Below, piece after piece: positions 29,274-58,500 of a stretch of 64,000 nucleotides of DNA. Below the pieces are notes generated by a model. That model was not told the DNA's origin. It saw only the letters and a list, made by a program, of their open reading frames with translations, and made no database searches. How positions within the stretch are numbered: the first letter of the stretch is position 1; the number at the start of each line of letters is the position of its first letter. Position numbers and translations under genes: made by a program. This DNA is from Candidatus Omnitrophota bacterium (GTDB taxonomy: Bacteria; Omnitrophota; Gorgyraeia; Zapsychrales; Zapsychraceae), in contig DATDQB010000023.1 in assembly GCA_035292445.1 (NCBI GenBank), forward strand, positions 25,533-89,532. The letters are read 5' to 3'.

Positions 29274-29447
29274 TTAACTATTAGCAGGTTTTTCACATTC
29301 GTCAGGGTCTTTCCCCTCTTTAAGGCAGGCGCAATCATCCGGCGATAACCCACAGCCGCGCTGGAGGGCTTTGCGTTTGATGAGGAGCCCAACGGCCATG
29401 GCTGCAAAGCAAATGGCGAGAATGATTAGAGTGGCAAGAAGGTTCAT
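29274..29447 (-). CDS. nqrM: Small single-TM cysteine-motif protein (58 aa), NqrM-like (Na+-NQR maturation factor candidate); absent from the ORF track
   Basis: Manual translation: MNLLATLIILAICFAAMAVGLLIKRKALQRGCGLSPDDCACLKEGKDPDECEKPANS. A TM helix followed by a CG..C.C...C motif, convergent with the end of nqrF. Resembles the NqrM/DUF539 pattern as I recall it. Confidence 0.45.
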   Translation of the reverse strand: MNLLATLIILAICFAAMAVGLLIKRKALQRGCGLSPDDCACLKEGKDPDECEKPANS

Positions 29448-29561: not shown

Positions 29562-30800
29562 ATGAAGCAACCTACCAAAAAGCTTAATATCAGCCAGCCC
29601 CAAGAGTTGAAGGTTTTAAGAAAGATCGTTGAGATCACCAACTCCGAGCTTGATTTGAATCTCATCCTTAACGAAGTCGTTCAGGCCGTTAATGATCTAA
29701 CCAAAGCCGATTCCGTTTTTATTTATCTTTTGGACGATAAAAAGAAGAGCCTGGTTTTGACAGCCTCCAAAACCCCGCATAAAAAGGAATTGGGAAGCGT
29801 CGTGTTGAAGGTCGGCGAAGGGATCACCGGATGGGTCGCCCGCGAGAACAAGCCCGTTGCCATCGGCGAAGGGGCTTATCAGGATAAACGCTTTAAGAAT
29901 TTTGATGTCCTGCCCGAAGACCGTTATGAAGCGTTCCTATCGGTCCCTATTACGGACAATAATGAGTCAATCGGCGTTATTAATGTGCAGCATAAAAAGG
30001 CGCATGAATACGCTCAAAATACAACCGACCTACTTTTATTAATTGCCAAGCAGGTCAGCGGCGTTATCGAAAACGCGAGGCTGTATCAGGAAACAAAACA
30101 GAAAGCTTTGCAATTCGACAGCCTTAATAAGGTCAGCCAGTCGATCACCTCCCAGCGGTATCTTGATGAGATCCTTAACCTGATCGTTGTCGTCACCGCT
30201 GAGATGCTTAATTCCAAGATATGTTCCATTATGTTGTTGGATGAAAAAGGAAACGAATTGGTTATCAAGGCGACGCAGAGCTTAAGTGATGAATACCGTA
30301 AAAAACCCAATCTGAAAGTCGATAATAGCGTCAGCGGGAAAGTCATTAAAACAAGAACTCCTATAACCATTTATGATGTTCAGAAGGAACAGGATTACCG
30401 CTTTCGCGATCTGGCCGTTAAAGAGAATTTGACCTCCATGCTGGCGGTTCCCATGGTTGTCAAAGAAAAGGCCATCGGTATTTTAAGCGTTTACACCAAG
30501 ACGCCGCATGTTTTTAACCAGGAAGAGATCGATGTCCTGCAAATGGTCGCCAATCAGGCGGCGGTGGCGGTCGAGAATACAAAACTTGTCGAAGAGACCG
30601 TTAAGGCCAAAGAAGCTTTGGAGACTCGTAAGATCATCGAACGGGCCAAAGGCGTTTTGATGCGCATGAGCGGCTTGAGCGAGGAAGCGGCATACCGGTT
30701 GATCAATAAAAAAAGCATGGATTCGGGAAAAACCATGAAAGATATTGCCGAATCCATTATGCTCATGGATGAGCTTCAAAGAGGTAAAGAGAAGTTGTAA
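29562..30800 (+). CDS. GAF-GAF-ANTAR RNA-binding antitermination regulator
   Basis: Two GAF-like regions and a C-terminal ANTAR domain (IIERAKGVLMRMSGLSEEAAYRLINKKSMDSGKTMKDIAESIM). Candidate ANTAR RNA targets lie immediately downstream. Confidence 0.8.
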   Translation: MKQPTKKLNISQPQELKVLRKIVEITNSELDLNLILNEVVQAVNDLTKADSVFIYLLDDKKKSLVLTASKTPHKKELGSVVLKVGEGITGWVARENKPVAIGEGAYQDKRFKNFDVLPEDRYEAFLSVPITDNNESIGVINVQHKKAHEYAQNTTDLLLLIAKQVSGVIENARLYQETKQKALQFDSLNKVSQSITSQRYLDEILNLIVVVTAEMLNSKICSIMLLDEKGNELVIKATQSLSDEYRKKPNLKVDNSVSGKVIKTRTPITIYDVQKEQDYRFRDLAVKENLTSMLAVPMVVKEKAIGILSVYTKTPHVFNQEEIDVLQMVANQAAVAVENTKLVEETVKAKEALETRKIIERAKGVLMRMSGLSEEAAYRLINKKSMDSGKTMKDIAESIMLMDELQRGKEKL

Positions 30801-30822
30801 AAAATATTTTTAAGAAACACCC

Positions 30823-30854
30823 TTGACAGAAGAAACATCAACGTGTATATTTAT
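30823..30854 (+). promoter_or_regulatory. Putative promoter P1 (TTGACA ... TATATT) preceded by a CCC motif shared with P2
   Basis: TTGACA at 30823-30828. The -10-like TATATT at 30849-30854 gives a long (20-nt) spacer; alternative -10 at 30846-30851. Confidence 0.4.
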
Positions 30855-30868
30855 ATTTAGTTCGAGTT

Positions 30869-30916
30869 GGACGAAGATGTCCTCTTAAGCGCCGAAGCTT
30901 AAGGGGATTTTTTATT
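30869..30916 (+). promoter_or_regulatory. ANTAR-type attenuator 1a: hexaloop hairpin GGAC-GAAGAU-GUCC overlapping the intrinsic terminator CCUCUUAAGC-GCCGAA-GCUUAAGGGG plus U-run
   Basis: Hairpin at 30869-30882. Terminator stem 30881-30906 with hexaloop GCCGAA and a U7 tract to 30916. The 3' end of the first hairpin is the 5' arm of the terminator. Confidence 0.55.
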
Positions 30917-30935
30917 TAGGTTACAGAATTTAGAA

Positions 30936-30990
30936 GACATTGAAGTCCTCTTTTAAAGCGTGGCGGCTTTGAAAGGGGATTTTTTATTTT
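30936..30990 (+). promoter_or_regulatory. ANTAR-type attenuator 1b: hairpin GAC-AUUGAA-GUC (A1/G4 hexaloop) plus terminator CCUCUUUUAAAGC-GUGGCG-GCUUUGAAAGGGG plus U-run
   Basis: Hairpin 30936-30947. 10-bp terminator stem with hexaloop GUGGCG at 30947-30978, U-run 30980-30990. Confidence 0.55.
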
Positions 30991-31014
30991 CAGTTTTAGG
31001 AAAGGAGGGTTAAT

Positions 31015-31149
31015 ATGCGACAAGATGATATGTTTTTTGAATCCTTCTCAAAGCAGATGAAGACGCTGGCCTACTTAATTGTGTTTTCATACGTTGCTTT
31101 GGGGGTCAGTTTGATGTGGACGGATTTGGTCCAGGCATTCCATTTTTAG
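31015..31149 (+). CDS. Small hydrophobic protein (44 aa) downstream of the first attenuator pair; not in the ORF track
   Basis: AGGAGGG SD 6 nt before the ATG at 31015. Translation MRQDDMFFESFSKQMKTLAYLIVFSYVALGVSLMWTDLVQAFHF with one predicted TM segment. Confidence 0.35.
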   Translation: MRQDDMFFESFSKQMKTLAYLIVFSYVALGVSLMWTDLVQAFHF

Positions 31150-31263
31150 TTGTTTTATAGGCCGGTGACGGCTTAAAAGATTCGGTTTGTTGAGCGGCGC
31201 GGCTCATTGGGTCAGGGATGATCAGGTTAAATAAAAGATTAATTATTCAGTTCGAGGTGAGCC

Positions 31264-31353
31264 ATGGAAAAAGAATACTTAGATACGTTTATTCGTTATC
31301 TGATCAGGATGTGTGCGGAAGAGTCTAAAGGGCTTGTTGAAGCGGAAGAATAG
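31264..31353 (+). CDS. Possible 29-aa ORF (MEKEYLDTFIRYLIRMCAEESKGLVEAEE) with a GAGGTGA SD
   Basis: Short ORF with a plausible SD in the otherwise non-coding amtB upstream region. Confidence 0.2.
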   Translation: MEKEYLDTFIRYLIRMCAEESKGLVEAEE

Positions 31354-31384
31354 GCAAAATCTTCCCGCGATTTTAAAAAAGCCC

Positions 31385-31413
31385 TTGACAAACACAAAAG
31401 GCAATTGTATACT
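31385..31413 (+). promoter_or_regulatory. Promoter P2: TTGACA-17-TATACT upstream of the amtB leader
   Basis: Perfect -35 at 31385-31390, 17-nt spacer, TATACT at 31408-31413. Confidence 0.55.
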
Positions 31414-31476
31414 TCATTCGACTTTTGAGCAAAGCAGCTCGCGCTTAGACCAAAGGCGGTTTAAGCAAATAGGCAA

Positions 31477-31524
31477 GGACAAAGATGTCCGACGAGATTC
31501 TTAGGGATCAAGTCGGATTTTTTT
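31477..31524 (+). promoter_or_regulatory. ANTAR-type attenuator 2a: GGAC-AAAGAU-GUCC hairpin (A1/G4) overlapping terminator UCCGAC...GUCGGA plus U7
   Basis: Hairpin 31477-31490. Terminator stem 31488-31517, U-run 31518-31524. Confidence 0.5.
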
Positions 31525-31541
31525 ATGCCCTTTTAAGAAGC

Positions 31542-31595
31542 GGACAATGAGGTCCTCCAACTCTATTTAAAACGAGAGAAGGGGGATTTTTTTTG
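31542..31595 (+). promoter_or_regulatory. ANTAR-type attenuator 2b: GGAC-AAUGAG-GUCC hairpin plus terminator CCUCC..CUCU-loop-GAGAG..GGGGG plus U9
   Basis: Hairpin 31542-31555. Terminator 31554-31585, U-run 31587-31595. About 55 nt upstream of amtB. Confidence 0.55.
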
Positions 31596-31651
31596 GCCAA
31601 AAGGGCTTGTAGGATAAATTCAGGTTAAATAACAAACAGGAGGAAAAGTAA

Positions 31652-32884
31652 ATGGAAATCAATACAGGAAACACAGCTTGGGTTCTGGCTTCATCCGCGC
31701 TGGTTATGCTGATGACGCCGGGGCTGGCCTTGTTCTACGGGGGCATGGTCAGACGTAAAAATGTGTTGGGAGTTTTGATGCAATGTTTTATCATCTTGTG
31801 TCTCATAAGTTTACAGTGGGTTCTTTTTGGATATAGCTTGGCGTTTGGGCCGGGAAATCAGTTTATCGGCGGACTCACATGGTTCGGGCTAAATGGCGTT
31901 GGTCAAGCGCCTAATCCGGATTATGCAGCAGATATCCCCCATCTGGCCTTTATGATCTTCCAAGCCATGTTCGCTATTATTACGCCGGCTTTAATCATTG
32001 GCGCTTTTGCCGAACGCATGAAATTTTCAGCGTTTATCTGGTTCAGCCTTCTGTGGGCGACCTTGGTGTATGATCCGATCTGTCATATGGTTTGGGGCGT
32101 TGGCGGGTGGGTCCGAAACATGGGCGCTTTGGATTTTGCCGGAGGCACGGTCGTTCACATTAATGCCGGTATAGCTGCGTTGGTGTGCGCTATTGTTTTA
32201 GGGAAAAGATATGGTTATGCGAATAAACCAACACCGCTCCACAATATTCCTTTTACGGTTTTGGGCGCGGCCTTACTATGGTTCGGCTGGTTCGGCTTTA
32301 ATGCCGGCAGCGCTTTAGCGGCGAACGGATTGGCAGCCAATGCTTTTGTCACGACCAATACGGCGGCAGCAGCTGCGGGTTTAAGCTGGGCGCTCTTGGA
32401 GTGGTGGAAAACCGGCAAGCCGACGATGTTCGGTACGGTTACAGGCGCGGTTGCAGGGCTGGTCGCCATTACACCGGCGGCGGGGTTTGTGGATACCATT
32501 GCCGCCATCATCATTGGTTTAAGTGTCAGCGCCGTTTGTTTCTTTGCGGTAAGCGCCATTAAACCAAAATTCGGTTATGATGATTCCTTGGACGCTTTTG
32601 GTGTCCACTGCATCGGAGGGATTTGGGGTGCGCTCATGACAGGTGTTTTCGCCTCAAAAGCCGTTAATTCAGCCGGGAATGACGGCTTACTTTACGGCAA
32701 CCCCGGATTGCTGTTGATTCAATTAAAAGCCGTTGTCATTACGGTCGTTTATTCTTTTGTGGTTTCTTTCATTATCCTCAAAGTGGTGGATATGATTTTG
32801 GGCGCCAGAGTAAGCCAGGAAGATGAGGTCATGGGACTTGATCTGACACAACACCACGAAAGAGCGTATACCATTTTAGAATAA
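31652..32884 (+). CDS. amtB: Ammonium transporter
   Basis: Amt/MEP family 11-TM protein with conserved DFAGG and twin-His context. Confidence 0.9.
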   Translation: MEINTGNTAWVLASSALVMLMTPGLALFYGGMVRRKNVLGVLMQCFIILCLISLQWVLFGYSLAFGPGNQFIGGLTWFGLNGVGQAPNPDYAADIPHLAFMIFQAMFAIITPALIIGAFAERMKFSAFIWFSLLWATLVYDPICHMVWGVGGWVRNMGALDFAGGTVVHINAGIAALVCAIVLGKRYGYANKPTPLHNIPFTVLGAALLWFGWFGFNAGSALAANGLAANAFVTTNTAAAAAGLSWALLEWWKTGKPTMFGTVTGAVAGLVAITPAAGFVDTIAAIIIGLSVSAVCFFAVSAIKPKFGYDDSLDAFGVHCIGGIWGALMTGVFASKAVNSAGNDGLLYGNPGLLLIQLKAVVITVVYSFVVSFIILKVVDMILGARVSQEDEVMGLDLTQHHERAYTILE

Positions 32885-32903
32885 ACTTTAATAGGAGAAC
32901 ACA

Positions 32904-33245
32904 ATGAAACTAATTACAGCAATTATTCAACCCCATAGGTTGGACGAGGTTAAAAAGGCCCTTTATGATGCTGATGTGAACTTGATCACCGTCAGTGAGG
33001 TGCTCGGGCACGGACGGCAAAAGGGCGTCGATGAGTATTACCGCGGCTCCAAAGAGAGCGGAAACCTGTTAAGGAAGATCCGCCTTGATATCGCGGTCAA
33101 TGACAATTTTGTCGAACCGACCATTAAAGCGATCATCAAGGGGGCCCGTACGGGCAAGATCGGGGATGGGAAGATTTTCGTTACCGATTTGCCGCGCTGC
33201 ATCAGGATCAGGACCGGGGACGAAGGGTCCCAGGCGATCGGGTAA
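32904..33245 (+). CDS. glnK: Nitrogen regulatory protein P-II (GlnK-type, adjacent to amtB)
   Basis: 112 aa, T-loop GRQKG..YRG, C-terminal TGKIGDGKIFV...IRIRTGDEG. Confidence 0.9.
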   Translation: MKLITAIIQPHRLDEVKKALYDADVNLITVSEVLGHGRQKGVDEYYRGSKESGNLLRKIRLDIAVNDNFVEPTIKAIIKGARTGKIGDGKIFVTDLPRCIRIRTGDEGSQAIG

Positions 33246-33267
33246 GGAAATGCAGTTTAAGTAAGGG

Positions 33268-33312
33268 ATTAAAGGTCAGCCCAGCCCTAATATTTATTTA
33301 GGGTTGGGCTGT
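33268..33312 (+). terminator. Imperfect 14-bp hairpin after glnK (CAGCCCAGCCCUAA / UUAGGGUUGGGCUG) without a clean U-run
   Basis: Read in the sequence; possible weak terminator or RNA-processing site. Confidence 0.3.
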
Positions 33313-33375
33313 ATCTGTCTGAAACTAAACAGTTTTTAGGTCGAGAAAAGTCCGTTGCTGACGGGAAAAATTATC

Positions 33376-33404
33376 TTGACAAAAAATAACCTCAAATGTA
33401 TACT
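33376..33404 (+). promoter_or_regulatory. Promoter P3: TTGACA-17-TATACT upstream of the glutamine synthetase leader
   Basis: TTGACA 33376-33381, 17-nt spacer, TATACT 33399-33404. Confidence 0.55.
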
Positions 33405-33474
33405 CAACCAAGTTTTAGGAATTGGCAATTTCATGGGCACAACCTTATCGATGGAGATAAGCATCAATCCCCAA

Positions 33475-33530
33475 GGGCAATGAGGTCCTTCTTAATAAAG
33501 CAGCGGTTTTGCTAAGAAGGGCTTTTTTAT
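33475..33530 (+). promoter_or_regulatory. ANTAR-type attenuator 3: GGGC-AAUGAG-GUCC hairpin plus terminator CCUUCUUAA-(AGCA-GCGGUU-UGCU)-UUAAGAAGG plus U-run, 18 nt before the GS gene
   Basis: Hairpin 33475-33488 (same AAUGAG hexaloop as 2b). Terminator 33487-33521, U-run 33523-33530. Confidence 0.55.
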
Positions 33531-33548
33531 TTCGTAGGAGAATTCAAG

Positions 33549-35726
33549 ATGATTAAAAAAGGAGATAAAGATATGAGTTCAACGTCAAGATTCAAAGAAG
33601 TCGACTTTTCGAATAAAGGAGAAAGAATGATAGAAGCTACCAAGCCGCAAGCGATCACGGATTATTACGGAGAGAACGTTTTCAGCTTAAAGGTCATGCG
33701 CGAGTATCTCTCGCCCAAAGCCTATAAATCTATCAGCGAAACGATCAAAAACGCCGGTAAATTAGACCCCAGCATTGCCGATGAAGTGGCTGAGGCCATG
33801 TTAAAATGGGCGGTTTCTAAAGGGGCAACGCATTTTACTCATTGGTTCCAGCCCTTGACCGGATTAACTGCCGAAAAGCACGATTCTTTTATCGAGCCGG
33901 ACGGAGAAGGTAGTTGTCTCGTGGAATTTTCAGCCAAAGAATTGATCCAGGGCGAACCGGACGCTTCAAGCTTCCCTTCAGGCGGGTTAAGACCGACATT
34001 TGAGGCCCGTGGGTATACGGGATGGGACCCTACCTCACCAGCGTTCATTAAAGAAGGCCCTAAAAGCGCGACACTTTGTATCCCGACATATTTCGTCGGT
34101 TGGAACGGCGAGGCGTTGGATAAAAAGACGCCTTTATTGCGCTCCATGAAGGCCCTTGCCAAACAAGTCAACCGCTTGGCCACACTTTTAGGCATTGAGA
34201 AAAAGCAACAGCCGTATTCCACTTTAGGCGGCGAACAAGAATATTTTCTTATTGACCGGCCGTATTACCTTCAGCGCATTGATCTTGTCCAAACAGGCCG
34301 AACGCTTTTTGGGAAAGAGCCGGCTAAACATCAACAGATGGCCGATCACTACTTCGGCCCGATCAAAACCCGTATTATGGCCTTTATGGAGGATTTGGAC
34401 CGTGAGATGTGGAAATTCGCAGCCCCAACAACCACACGCCACAATGAGGTCTCTCCTGCGCAATTTGAAGTAGCGCCGGTTTTCGAAAACCAAAACCTGG
34501 CTGTCGACCACAATATGTTATTAATGGAAGTCATGCAAAAGGTGGCCGAAAAAAACGGCTTAGCCTGTTTATTGCATGAGAAACCGTTTGCCGGCGTCAA
34601 CGGTTCCGGTAAACATAACAACTGGTCTATCACCGGCCCTGACGGAAAGAATTGGTTATCTCCCGGTGATAATCCGCATGAAAACGAAAGATTTTTGATC
34701 ATGCTTTGCGCCGTTATTAAGGCTGTCGATACGTATGCCGCCATGTTGCGCGCGGCTGTTGCTTCAGCCGCTAATGACCACCGCCTTGGCTCTCACGAAG
34801 CGCCGCCGGCGATCATCTCCATTTATTTAGGCGAGCAATTGACCGATATTATCGAGCAGATCGAAAAAAGTTCAACGGCCAAAAGTTCCAAGCAAGGCGG
34901 TTCTTTGGAGGTTGGGGTTGATTCTTTGCCGACTTTGCCGCGGCACGCTTCCGACAGAAACAGGACGTCGCCATTTGCTTTTACCGGAAGCAAATTCGAG
35001 TTTCGCGCCGTCGGTTCAAGCATGAGCTTGGCCGGGCCCAACGTTGTCCTTAACACGATCGTGGCCGACTCGTTGGATGAGATTTGCACCCAACTTGAAG
35101 CCGATAAAAAGGCCAAGAAAAGCATTGATAAAGCAGCGCAGAAAATATTGCAAGACATCATCAAAAAACATAAGCGCGTTATCTTCAACGGTGATAATTA
35201 TACGGAAAGCTGGCTCAAGGAAGCCAAAAAGCGCGGGTTACCCAATATGATCACAACGCCTGAAGCCCTTGAAACATTGAAAGACCCGAAGATCATCAAA
35301 CTTTTTGAGAGGCACAATGTTCTTTCCAAAAGAGAACTGGATTCCCGTTACGGCGTTTATACGGAAACCTATAAAACCATTCTCAACTACGAAGCCAAAC
35401 TTATGGTCGATATGGCAAGGACCTTGATCATACCGGCCTGTGTGGGCTACCAGGAAGAATTGGCCGAGACCATCAAATCCGTAGAGGGGATCAACAAAAC
35501 AAAAGCGACAGCCTCGAGGAAAGTCCTTAAAGAGATCAGCGGATTGGTCGAAAAGGCCTTTGCTTCCGCCGATAGTTTGGAGAAGGCCTCCTCTGGCTCA
35601 TCAACGGAAAAAATTAAAGATGAGATGGTTGAGCTTCGAGACACGGTTGATGCTTTAGAAGGTTTAGTTGCCAAAAAAGTTTGGCCGCTGCCTTCCTATG
35701 CTGAAATGCTGTTTGTTTTAAAATAA
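33549..35726 (+). CDS. glnN: Glutamine synthetase type III (GlnN, about 725 aa)
   Basis: Length and GS catalytic motifs characteristic of type III GS. Preceded by its own promoter and ANTAR attenuator. Confidence 0.85.
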   Translation: MIKKGDKDMSSTSRFKEVDFSNKGERMIEATKPQAITDYYGENVFSLKVMREYLSPKAYKSISETIKNAGKLDPSIADEVAEAMLKWAVSKGATHFTHWFQPLTGLTAEKHDSFIEPDGEGSCLVEFSAKELIQGEPDASSFPSGGLRPTFEARGYTGWDPTSPAFIKEGPKSATLCIPTYFVGWNGEALDKKTPLLRSMKALAKQVNRLATLLGIEKKQQPYSTLGGEQEYFLIDRPYYLQRIDLVQTGRTLFGKEPAKHQQMADHYFGPIKTRIMAFMEDLDREMWKFAAPTTTRHNEVSPAQFEVAPVFENQNLAVDHNMLLMEVMQKVAEKNGLACLLHEKPFAGVNGSGKHNNWSITGPDGKNWLSPGDNPHENERFLIMLCAVIKAVDTYAAMLRAAVASAANDHRLGSHEAPPAIISIYLGEQLTDIIEQIEKSSTAKSSKQGGSLEVGVDSLPTLPRHASDRNRTSPFAFTGSKFEFRAVGSSMSLAGPNVVLNTIVADSLDEICTQLEADKKAKKSIDKAAQKILQDIIKKHKRVIFNGDNYTESWLKEAKKRGLPNMITTPEALETLKDPKIIKLFERHNVLSKRELDSRYGVYTETYKTILNYEAKLMVDMARTLIIPACVGYQEELAETIKSVEGINKTKATASRKVLKEISGLVEKAFASADSLEKASSGSSTEKIKDEMVELRDTVDALEGLVAKKVWPLPSYAEMLFVLK

Positions 35727-35746
35727 GAAAAAATGTTTTCAATCAG

Positions 35747-35781
35747 CAGGGACAGGTTGCTAAACCTGTCCCTGTTTTTTT
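35747..35781 (+). terminator. Rho-independent terminator after glnN (CAGGGACAGGUU-GCUA-AACCUGUCCCUG plus U7)
   Basis: Perfect 12-bp stem plus U-run. Confidence 0.65.
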
Positions 35782-38334: not shown

Positions 38335-38556
38335 GTGGACTTAGCCGATAAAATAGAGAATTCCTTTATTGCCCTGCAAGATGGGGGTATTTATCGTTAT
38401 ATCATCGAAGATACCGAACGGCTTTTGATCGAAAAAGCTTTGCAAAAAACGCGGGGTAACCAGATCTTGGCGGCGCGGATACTGGGCTTGAACAGAAATA
38501 CGATAAGGACCAAAATAAAAAAGCTAAAGATCGACTTAAGGAAGTTTAAAGAATGA
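38335..38556 (+). CDS. Small Fis-type HTH DNA-binding protein (73 aa), overlaps the gltB start by 4 nt
   Basis: C-terminal motif GNQILAARILGLNRNTIRTKIKKL, typical of Fis/NtrC-family HTH. GTG start. Confidence 0.5.
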   Translation: MDLADKIENSFIALQDGGIYRYIIEDTERLLIEKALQKTRGNQILAARILGLNRNTIRTKIKKLKIDLRKFKE

Positions 38557-51808: not shown

Positions 51809-55092
<3,284 letters not shown>

Positions 55093-55108
<16 letters not shown>

Positions 55109-58100: not shown

Positions 58101-58500
58101 TTGCGTGGGTGGCGGAATTGGTATACGCGCACGTTTGAGGGGCGTGTGGGGCAACCCGTGAGAGTTCAATTCTCTCCCCACGCACTAATTTCGATGGTTC
58201 CCCCGTTTTTTCTAAATGAATATTTTAATAAGGTAAACGGGGCCCCGCCTACAATAATATTTTTAGGAAACGGCGGGGAAGTCCACTCCCGCGCATAAAC
58301 TTGGGAGTTCTCCCGACGCTCACTTACGTTCGGTCGGGACCCCGACTGAGCATAAGCGAACGTCGGGGAATTCTCTCCCCGCGCATTCTGCTTCGCCCCG
58401 ATGCTTTCGCTCGGGGCTTCGCAGGAATAAATTTCAGCGAAGCAGAATGTTCCTACGAAGCTCAAAGCGGAAGCATTTGAGCGGAGTAGAACATTTAAGG
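58101..58500. repeat. Highly structured, repeat-rich spacer between pyrG and rpe: dispersed copies of AATTCTCTCCCC(A/G)CGCA in both orientations plus nested long hairpins
   Basis: Inverted pair 58102-58120 / 58167-58185. Direct copies at 58270-58294 and 58365-58387. 14-bp stem GCATTCTGCTTCGC (58383-58396) / GCGAAGCAGAATGT (58436-58449) enclosing an inner GCCCCGA/TCGGGGC hairpin. A GCTCAAA/TTTGAGC hairpin lies at 58460-58482. Confidence 0.4.

Follow-up and report, generated by a model that had tools for sequence, protein, structure and literature searches.

Introduction

The RNAs recognised by ANTAR proteins canonically carry two hairpins, of which the upstream one (P1) stays clear of the transcription terminator and the downstream one (P2) overlaps it (PMC3369931, PMC8934654), the linker between them measuring 5-12 nt in the eut leaders and 2-25 nt in an actinobacterial survey. 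The published recognition code consists of an invariant G at position 4 of the hexaloop (G4) together with an A at position 1 (A1) (PMC3369931, PMC8934654), and residues R142, K149 and Y164 of EutV are reported to hold the flipped-out G4 (PMC8934654). EutV needs the second hexaloop in vivo (PMC3369931); a minimal definition with a single hexaloop has been proposed by Walshe et al. (PMC8934654), and the structural work on EutV left open whether one hexaloop suffices (PMC8934654). Nitrogen genes are among the targets described: in 2012, ANTAR target RNAs were predicted upstream of genes for P-II proteins, ammonium transporters and glutamine/glutamate synthases (Ramesh et al., PMC3369931), including 13 attenuators in six transcription units of Desulfotomaculum acetoxidans (PMC3369931), and control of amtB, glnK and nif genes by the Geobacter protein GnfR, which joins a receiver (REC) domain to ANTAR, was reported in 2010, with antitermination tested on nifH (PMC2995071). 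GnfR binds the element CAGGCAANGGCGCC, which overlaps the terminators of nifH, glnK and amtB (PMC2995071). Here, we describe a probable locus of this kind in a 64,000-nt stretch of DNA from a Candidatus Omnitrophota bacterium (contig DATDQB010000023.1; hereafter, the window), in which a gene whose product combines a pair of GAF domains with ANTAR is followed by five hairpin-terminator units preceding genes for ammonium assimilation.

The sequence evidence makes it very probable that this locus constitutes an ANTAR antitermination regulon for ammonium assimilation, run by the adjacent GAF-GAF-ANTAR protein. In the window, three transcription units would be under its control, namely, those of a small open reading frame (ORF) of 44 aa, of amtB-glnK and of glnN. 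An original prediction, made from the letters of the window, had already proposed that amtB-glnK and glnN are gated by ANTAR antitermination, a proposal for which synteny, about 126 related units, the loop signature and the G4-contact residues now provide strong comparative support. Pairing of protein and RNA, the direction in which control is exerted and the ligand's identity, like the other functional statements made here, we infer from sequence, structure prediction and comparative genomics. Inspection of this genome covered the 64 kb of the window, and the comparison set comprises 80 loci from other genomes, each encoding a regulator 68-77% identical to that of the window. More broadly, a relative of the regulator is encoded in 441 of the 514 stretches that matched our search patterns in a collection of species-representative genomes.

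Results

The regulator

29562-30800, plus strand: GAF-GAF-ANTAR regulator gene, 412 aa, identified by its Pfam domains

As originally predicted, the product of this gene is a GAF-GAF-ANTAR protein: Pfam identifies two GAF domains (GAF_2, 3.5e-41, two stretches) and a C-terminal ANTAR domain (PF03861, aa 349-399), the latter with 72.6 bits against a cutoff of 27.3. A database protein from a metagenome-assembled genome (MAG) of Candidatus Omnitrophota, P0001, is 100% identical to it. The ANTAR segment matches the PDB structures of Rv1626, NasR and EutV at 1.6e-9 to 1.5e-8, and R356, K363 and Y378 of the regulator align with R142, K149 and Y164 of EutV, R356 and K363 being invariant across 16 homologues. 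Judged by these defining features, the protein is a member of the ANTAR family, for which RNA binding as a dimer and antitermination are predicted. In the AlphaFold2 (AF2) model, which has a mean predicted local distance difference test (pLDDT) score of 80.8, the first GAF domain (aa 12-150) is followed by a helix (152-193), the second GAF domain (198-315) and a long helix (320-370), after which the helices of a three-helix ANTAR domain lie within 374-411 (374-388 and 392-411).

Structure comparison of the model places the whole tandem-GAF fold closest to the modules of PDE5, PDE2 and CyaB2, and the best single-domain match of each GAF domain is the N-terminal GAF of PtsP (EI-Ntr; PDB 3ci6 at 2.3e-20, TM-score about 0.9 at 2.0 A). 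The PtsP family NF008283 of NCBIfam matches the two domains at 7e-22 and 1e-18, and the GAF domain of NifA is the second-best family match. The full PtsP architecture was not found, only positions 2-163 of the 748 of NF008283 being matched, at 137.7 bits against a cutoff of 583; the regulator, by its sequence, is GAF-like but not a PtsP. Pfam found no REC domain in the protein, and no kinase gene adjoins its gene, which has nqrF upstream and the leaders downstream. Between nqrF and the regulator gene lies an ORF for a 57-aa cysteine-rich protein with one predicted membrane helix (29274-29447, minus strand), which matches nothing in Pfam and is perhaps not a real gene.

Five attenuators in the window

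The five units are given below with their scores against the covariance model R1 (alignment A2), which was trained on 118 units, none of them from the window.

30869-30882, plus strand: hairpin of unit 1, GGAC-GAAGAU-GUCC (G1, G4), 21.4 bits
30879-30913, plus strand: terminator T1, stem 30879-30908, apex hexaloop GCCGAA, U run 30908-30913, -17.9 kcal/mol
30935-30948, plus strand: hairpin of unit 2, (A)GAC-AUUGAA-GUC(C), 25.8 bits
30945-30985, plus strand: terminator T2, stem 30945-30980, apex hexaloop GUGGCG, U run 30980-30985, -20.8 kcal/mol
31477-31490, plus strand: hairpin of unit 3 (P2), GGAC-AAAGAU-GUCC, 20.6 bits
31487-31524, plus strand: terminator T3, stem 31487-31518, tetraloop, U run 31518-31524, -16.3 kcal/mol
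31542-31555, plus strand: hairpin of unit 4, GGAC-AAUGAG-GUCC, 20.1 bits
31552-31594, plus strand: terminator T4, stem 31552-31587, 10-nt loop, U run 31587-31594, -12.9 kcal/mol
33475-33488, plus strand: hairpin of unit 5 (P2), GGGC-AAUGAG-GUCC, 23.9 bits
33485-33528, plus strand: terminator T5, stem 33485-33522, tetraloop, U run 33523-33528, -18.0 kcal/mol

Each unit consists of a 4-bp hexaloop hairpin, GGRC-RNNGAN-GUCC, whose 3' arm, GUCC, provides the first four bases of the terminator stem. Units 1 and 2 precede the 44-aa ORF, units 3 and 4 precede amtB-glnK, and unit 5 precedes glnN. All nucleotides of the GUCC arm are paired inside the terminator in 5/5 units, as the original prediction had it for the shared arm, and hairpin and terminator are thus mutually exclusive. 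G4 is present in all five hexaloops and A1 in four, unit 1 carrying G1. The four hairpins listed originally are all present, but the list lacked that of unit 1 (GGAC-GAAGAU-GUCC, 30869-30882, G1). Similarly, G4 had been ascribed to the loops of the terminators, which is correct for T1 (GCCGAA) and T2 (GUGGCG) but not for T3 and T5, which have tetraloops, or for T4, with its 10-nt loop.

Alone, the hairpins fold with -1.6 to -4.0 kcal/mol, against -17 to -24 kcal/mol for the terminator folds. Because the terminator fold far outweighs the weak hairpin, termination is expected to be the default state. Forcing the hairpin to form costs 4.7-9.8 kcal/mol and, in units 1, 2, 3 and 5, sets the residual helix 2-4 unpaired nucleotides (GGA or GGGC) apart from the U run; unit 4, folded under the same constraint, loses its terminator helix completely. 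Since the stem of a terminator generally must abut the U tract, formation of the hairpin is predicted to lower termination efficiency. A scan of the leaders with Rfam 15 gave nothing near any gathering score, the glutamine riboswitch included, and the weak matches reflect terminator shape only.

Significance and conservation of the units

The pattern GRCRNNGANGTCC has 6 matches in the window against 0.34 expected, and five of them are the leaders. The sixth, at 58272, was rejected as an attenuator, as it has no A/T-rich leader or terminator context and reaches 8 bits with R1. A generic ANNGNN hexaloop on a stem of at least 4 bp proved uninformative, being common by chance (138 on the plus and 82 on the minus strand of the window), and significance attaches to the specific motif in its context only. 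In a covariance-model search, which had been suggested together with the original prediction, R1, built from other genomes, finds exactly the five leader sites in the 64 kb, with 20-26 bits (E 0.001-0.02), the next match having 12 bits.

The units are conserved across the phylum. In the 80 loci (0.97 Mb scanned, cut-off E <= 1), R1 gives 119 matches on the regulator's strand, most of which are training sequences, and the informative part of this result is the empty minus strand, with 0 matches. The motif is present in 54 loci, with a single minus-strand match against more than 100 in all, and the complete hairpin-plus-terminator unit occurs about 126 times in the orientation of the regulator gene and hardly ever in the opposite one. 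Of 81 sequences (the 80 loci and the window), 57 have one or more units with a terminator, oriented like the regulator gene. Exact-motif counts underestimate the number of units, given the degenerate variants in locus L009, which lacks the exact motif and carries GGGC-AAGGUA-GUUC and GGGA-AAUGAA-GUCC before terminators at 2720-2870.

The loops themselves bear a signature. In a test free of ascertainment bias, which required only GG[AG]C-N6-GUCC and a following T run and left the loop letters unconstrained, all 112 plus-strand sites have G4, and 93 of the 112 have A1, 15 have G1 and 93 have A5, with positions 2, 3 and 6 varying; the 10 minus-strand sites show no loop pattern. This corresponds to the published recognition code introduced above.

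The units are organised in arrays (61 single, 25 double and 5 triple, with a median spacing of 56 nt), 69/91 of which lie within 110 nt of a near-consensus promoter. The gene order regulator-amtB-glnK-glnN-GATase-nadE (GATase, glutamine amidotransferase) recurs in many Omnitrophota loci, and elsewhere the units are found ahead of amtB (two types), glnN, type I glutamine synthetase and ORFs for membrane proteins of 40-47 aa. In four loci, a unit precedes the regulator gene itself (L041 1848, L044 633, L055 84 and L066 6878), which suggests autoregulation in some lineages; in the window, there is no attenuator unit upstream of the regulator start at 29562. Further genes found behind units are as follows.

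L042 10414-11877, L045 10436-11899, L080 8342-8554, L058 8476-9285 and L008 10044-10745: type I glutamine synthetase, a 71-aa DUF2934 protein, a Gcw_chp-like protein and LuxR/GerE-type regulators

In a metagenome-wide scan with GGGCANNGAAGTCCTCTT, 2/120 among the matches listed (L163 and L170) are real attenuators, the rest being mostly chance matches in GC-rich coding regions.

Two side observations concern these loci. An inverted-repeat element of about 110 nt (L009 2872-2986 and 4786-4900; fold -41.5 kcal/mol, z = -11) is present in multiple copies on both strands in L009, L030, L044 and L052, including the amtB and glnN leaders of L009; it matches no Rfam family in L009 and looks like a miniature inverted-repeat transposable element (MITE). 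Moreover, L034, labelled Nanoarchaeota archaeon, and many loci labelled 'uncultured Planctomycetales' carry an Omnitrophota-type regulator (about 71% identity), and these labels probably reflect binning or labelling problems in public records.

Upstream hairpins and leader geometry

Three hexaloop hairpins located upstream of the terminator-overlapping ones had been missed by the original prediction.

31426-31441, plus strand: extra upstream hexaloop hairpin UGAGC-AAAGCA-GCUCG (A1, G4), seen in the window
31443-31466, plus strand: P1 hairpin GCUUAGACC-AAAGGC-GGUUUAAGC (A1, G4) of the amtB leader, 10 nt before hairpin 3, supported by covariation and RNAalifold
33444-33461, plus strand: P1 hairpin CUUAUC-GAUGGA-GAUAAG (G1, G4) of the glnN leader, 13 nt before hairpin 5

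Covariation is pronounced in the amtB-type P1. Among 18 aligned leaders, 8/9 of its pairs show changes on both sides, and the closing C-G pair and the loop G4 are each found in 17/18. The whole amtB-leader structure contains 36 compensatory cells, and 0/500 shuffles reach the observed covariation score or cell count. When the partner strand is slid by 1-3 columns, pairing falls from 86% to 26-49%, and RNAalifold independently recovers both hairpins of the amtB leader. For units 1, 2 and 4 of the window, no convincing P1 was found. On predicted structure, therefore, units 3 and 5 are full dual-hairpin ANTAR-type targets, and units 1, 2 and 4 are of the minimal single-hexaloop type only. This revises the original picture in two respects. 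The five leaders had all been described as dual-hairpin, where two units are canonical in this sense and three have a single hexaloop, and their geometry had been equated exactly with the two-hexaloop substrate by taking the loop of the terminator for the partner of a hairpin that in fact corresponds to P2.

The related loci exhibit two classes of leader. In class I leaders (31 arrays), the hairpin starts 10-19 nt past the -10 box, too close for a P1 to fit in between; class II leaders are 30-81 nt long and often have a P1 7-12 nt upstream of P2. Among the 126 units, a P1-like hexaloop lies at most 20 nt upstream in 40, a hexaloop with a purine at position 1 and with G4 is found inside the terminator in 40, and neither is present in 56. 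For such second hexaloops, mononucleotide shuffles are a poor control, since terminators are hairpins by construction, and the apex loops were instead compared with those of control terminators drawn from the same loci. By minimum-energy folding, the apex is a hexaloop in about one-fifth of the attenuator terminators (about half of the class I units, counting folds cut short by internal T runs), and these apex hexaloops carry G4 in 22/28 cases, against 18/81 in the control terminators (Fisher 2e-7). At about 8 tandem junctions, a terminator with a hexaloop apex lies 8-15 nt before the next hairpin, so that the spacing is that of dual-hairpin substrates and the U tract takes the place of the linker. 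As a general rule, the terminator apex as an obligatory second hexaloop was rejected on the frequencies just given.

Promoters and genes

30823-30851, plus strand: sigma-70-type promoter A, TTGACA-17-TATATT, 11/12 in the promoter scan
31385-31413, plus strand: sigma-70-type promoter B, TTGACA-17-TATACT, 11/12 in the promoter scan
33376-33404, plus strand: sigma-70-type promoter C, TTGACA-17-TATACT, 11/12 in the promoter scan
31015-31149, plus strand: 44-aa ORF, predicted single-pass membrane protein with a strong Shine-Dalgarno sequence, first gene behind attenuators 1 and 2
31652-32884, plus strand: amtB, ammonium transporter (Pfam Ammonium_transp, 3.3e-133)
32904-33245, plus strand: glnK, P-II protein (Pfam P-II, 3.1e-26)
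33549-35726, plus strand: glnN, type III glutamine synthetase (Pfam GSIII_N, 9.9e-76, Gln-synt_C-ter and Gln-synt_C)
35745-35776, plus strand: strong terminator (14 pairs, 7 G-C) ending the glnN transcription unit
L023 8381-8500, L078 8867-8992, L074 8785-8907 and L018 9688-9807: predicted single-pass membrane ORFs of 40-47 aa behind attenuators and just upstream of amtB, position kept, no Pfam family matched

All three promoters of the original prediction were recovered, but the one at 30823, described there as looser, scores 11/12 like the others. The -10 box of promoter A ends 17 nt before hairpin 1, which would accordingly lie at the extreme 5' end of its transcript. No match with at most 2 mismatches to the sigma-54 element TGGCAC-N5-TTGCW was found in 30800-31650 or 33245-33550, and matches to the sigma-54 consensus in the whole window are fewer than expected by chance. 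Because most arrays of the related loci are close to a near-consensus promoter and the leaders contain no sigma-54 site, control is likely to be exerted after initiation. The contrast originally drawn with the NtrBC/sigma-54 paradigm thus stands as far as the leaders are concerned, but it is not new (PMC3369931, PMC2995071).

The 44-aa ORF has no significant Pfam family and bears a weak (tblastn E 0.09-0.6) but syntenic likeness to the 40-47-aa ORFs upstream of amtB elsewhere. An ORF of 29 aa at 31265-31354 was dropped as a gene because it is not conserved. The genes amtB and glnK, 19 nt apart, are probably co-transcribed. Downstream of glnN, the region 35794-58087 encodes a series of glutamine-using enzymes: a class I GATase, nadE (glutamine-dependent NAD synthetase), gltB/gltD, carA, purF and pyrG, with the ORF at 51809-55108, the large partner of carA, being the presumed carB. 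No hexaloop motif was found at the GATase, nadE, gltBD, carAB, purF and pyrG genes. Directly upstream of gltB, and overlapping its start codon, lies a gene for a 73-aa Fis-family HTH_8 protein (1.5e-13; 38335-38556), which may be a DNA-binding regulator of glutamate synthase.

Discussion

Proposed model of control

We propose the following model. The three strong sigma-70-type promoters would fire roughly constitutively, and each transcript would meet one or two intrinsic terminators ahead of the coding region, where by default it would stop. The GAF-GAF-ANTAR protein would bind the hexaloop hairpin GGRC-RNNGAN-GUCC through A1 and G4 of the loop, and the bound hairpin would retain the GUCC strand, that is, the base of the terminator stem beside the U tract. 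With the remaining terminator helix parted from the U tract by 2-4 unpaired nucleotides, polymerase would go on to transcribe the 44-aa ORF, amtB-glnK or glnN. Binding would be assisted, in the leaders of amtB and glnN, by the P1 located 10-13 nt upstream, in the manner of dual-hairpin substrates of the EutV type. A single hairpin would have to serve in units 1, 2 and 4, perhaps helped in T1 and T2 by the G4 hexaloop at the apex, and tandem units would compound the default stop and make the response sharper. The link between this protein and these leaders is suggested by synteny and by the nature of the targets, among which are amtB, glnK, glnN, type I glutamine synthetase and, in some loci, the regulator gene.

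As for the signal, the GAF domain of NifA responds to 2-oxoglutarate or P-II. That of EI-Ntr has been reported to bind glutamine and thereby to report nitrogen status (PMC4848567). Because both GAF domains of the regulator most resemble those of PtsP (EI-Ntr) and NifA, glutamine and 2-oxoglutarate, both already named as candidates in the original prediction, are now better supported and remain candidates; we give direct sensing of one or the other about even chances. Low glutamine or high 2-oxoglutarate would then bring the tandem-GAF protein into its RNA-binding state. A more far-reaching scheme can be put forward only tentatively, and we lean against it: across Omnitrophota, one RNA-binding protein, in place of a DNA-binding regulator, might be the master switch of ammonium assimilation, sensing glutamine and/or 2-oxoglutarate directly by way of its EI-Ntr/NifA-like tandem GAF domains and acting on minimal, tandem single-hexaloop attenuators at the 5' ends of transcripts, with one terminator's apical G4 hexaloop serving also as the P1 of the following unit.

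Several points weigh against the proposed regulon or parts of it. A residual helix of 8-11 bp persists once the hairpin has formed, and the size of the drop in termination is an assumption. The stem of P2 varies on one side only (G.U to A-U), without compensatory covariation, and its conservation could partly reflect the terminator that it overlaps. Three of the five units have no second hexaloop and, by analogy with EutV, may work less well or differently. The assignment of the ligand draws on about 30% identity to other GAF domains, and another ANTAR protein is possible outside the inspected 64 kb.

This last point leads to the reading that the attenuators are genuine ANTAR targets served by another trans-acting factor, such as a REC-ANTAR protein of the GnfR or EutV type, the adjacent protein having other targets or being a co-regulator. 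The extent of the genome inspected leaves room for such a factor, the characterised nitrogen-related ANTAR systems use a REC input (PMC2995071), and in some loci (L008, L017, L019 and others) the regulator has no nitrogen genes nearby. Nonetheless, we consider this very unlikely, since in most of the longer loci the regulator and the attenuator-controlled nitrogen genes are adjacent and co-oriented, in four loci the regulator gene is itself preceded by an attenuator unit, and the regulator has conserved G4-contact residues. Even less credible is a role of the hairpins independent of any protein, as part of a small riboswitch, as a conserved element upstream of constitutive, leaky terminators or as 5' stem-loops with an mRNA-stabilising role. 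The class I hairpins do occupy the extreme 5' end of their transcripts, a place where a stem-loop can shield the mRNA; however, a hairpin of 14 nt is too small for a ligand pocket, the leaders match no Rfam family (glutamine riboswitch included), and an invariant G4 with A1 next to free positions 2, 3 and 6 is explained neither by a terminator nor by a stability function (PMC3369931; PMC8934654).

A third alternative concerns the input only. The regulator might be set by contact with the co-regulated P-II protein GlnK, or by a cyclic nucleotide, rather than by direct binding of glutamine or 2-oxoglutarate. In some NifA systems, P-II acts on NifA via the GAF domain. That the NifA GAF is the second-best family match and that glnK belongs to the regulon fit with a role for GlnK, and the nearness of the tandem-GAF fold to PDE5, PDE2 and CyaB2 fits with a cyclic nucleotide. 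Both GAF domains individually match PtsP/EI-Ntr best, however, for which glutamine binding is reported (PMC4848567), and we regard this alternative as unlikely. Antitermination of the ammonium assimilation genes by the adjacent GAF-GAF-ANTAR protein remains our preferred reading.

If the more far-reaching scheme outlined above is true, it would assign a function to a GAF-ANTAR protein for the first time and furnish a natural example of one hexaloop sufficing for antitermination in vivo. The regulator is a well-defined candidate for the first GAF-ANTAR protein to be characterised. The approximately 126 natural attenuator variants, many of them single-hexaloop or tandem, bear on whether one or two hexaloops are needed (PMC8934654). 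For a phylum without cultured representatives, the model offers a concrete and testable scheme of nitrogen control, and the motif and R1 lend themselves to the annotation of nitrogen regulons in MAGs of Omnitrophota.

Comparison with known systems

The class of mechanism proposed here is already known, ANTAR control of nitrogen genes is established, and nothing in our results overturns it. The present system differs in its GAF-GAF one-component input, its sigma-70-type promoters in place of sigma-54 ones, its abundance of single-hexaloop, promoter-proximal and tandem units, and its conservation across an uncultured phylum. No characterised GAF-ANTAR protein was found in the searchable literature, and none was known in 2012 according to PMC3369931.

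The closest characterised analogue is GnfR of Geobacter, which likewise acts at terminators in the amtB and glnK leaders through a short element that overlaps the terminator. Read as a hairpin, its element CAGGCAANGGCGCC corresponds to GGC-AANGGC-GCC, with a hexaloop carrying A1 and G4 like those of the window units. The input and the promoters are different: the receiver of GnfR is phosphorylated by a histidine kinase and the promoters are of the sigma-54/GnfM type, whereas in the window a tandem GAF module is part of the same polypeptide, the promoters are sigma-70-like and the units are often in tandem. With EutV of Enterococcus faecalis, the regulator shares the G4-contact residues and its presumed targets share the A1/G4 hexaloops and the terminator-overlapping hairpin (PMC3369931, PMC8934654), and the P1 hairpins of units 3 and 5, 10-13 nt upstream, come near the 5-12 nt linker of eut. 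EutV, for its part, is a response regulator for ethanolamine use that needs both hairpins in vivo, and, unlike in its substrates, there is no room for a P1 in three of the five window units and in the 31 promoter-proximal units of the relatives.

NasR of Klebsiella oxytoca resembles the regulator as a one-component sensor-ANTAR protein that is encoded beside its target leader, serves nitrogen assimilation and has A1/G4 hexaloops as targets (PMC12591593, PMC7496416). Its NIT domain senses nitrate/nitrite and it acts on the single nasF leader, whereas the GAF-GAF module of the window presumably reads nitrogen status and would govern a regulon of several operons with tandem attenuators. The regulons predicted in 2012 share with the window the nitrogen-gene targets and the presence of several attenuators per organism; they followed the dual-hairpin model, were drawn from Firmicutes and Proteobacteria with Omnitrophota unsampled, and their architectures were not tied to GAF-GAF proteins (PMC3369931). 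Finally, the GAF domain found in EI-Ntr (PtsP) controls a phosphoenolpyruvate (PEP)-dependent phosphotransferase, whereas the window protein carries two such domains on a predicted RNA-binding output and has no PEP-utilising domain.

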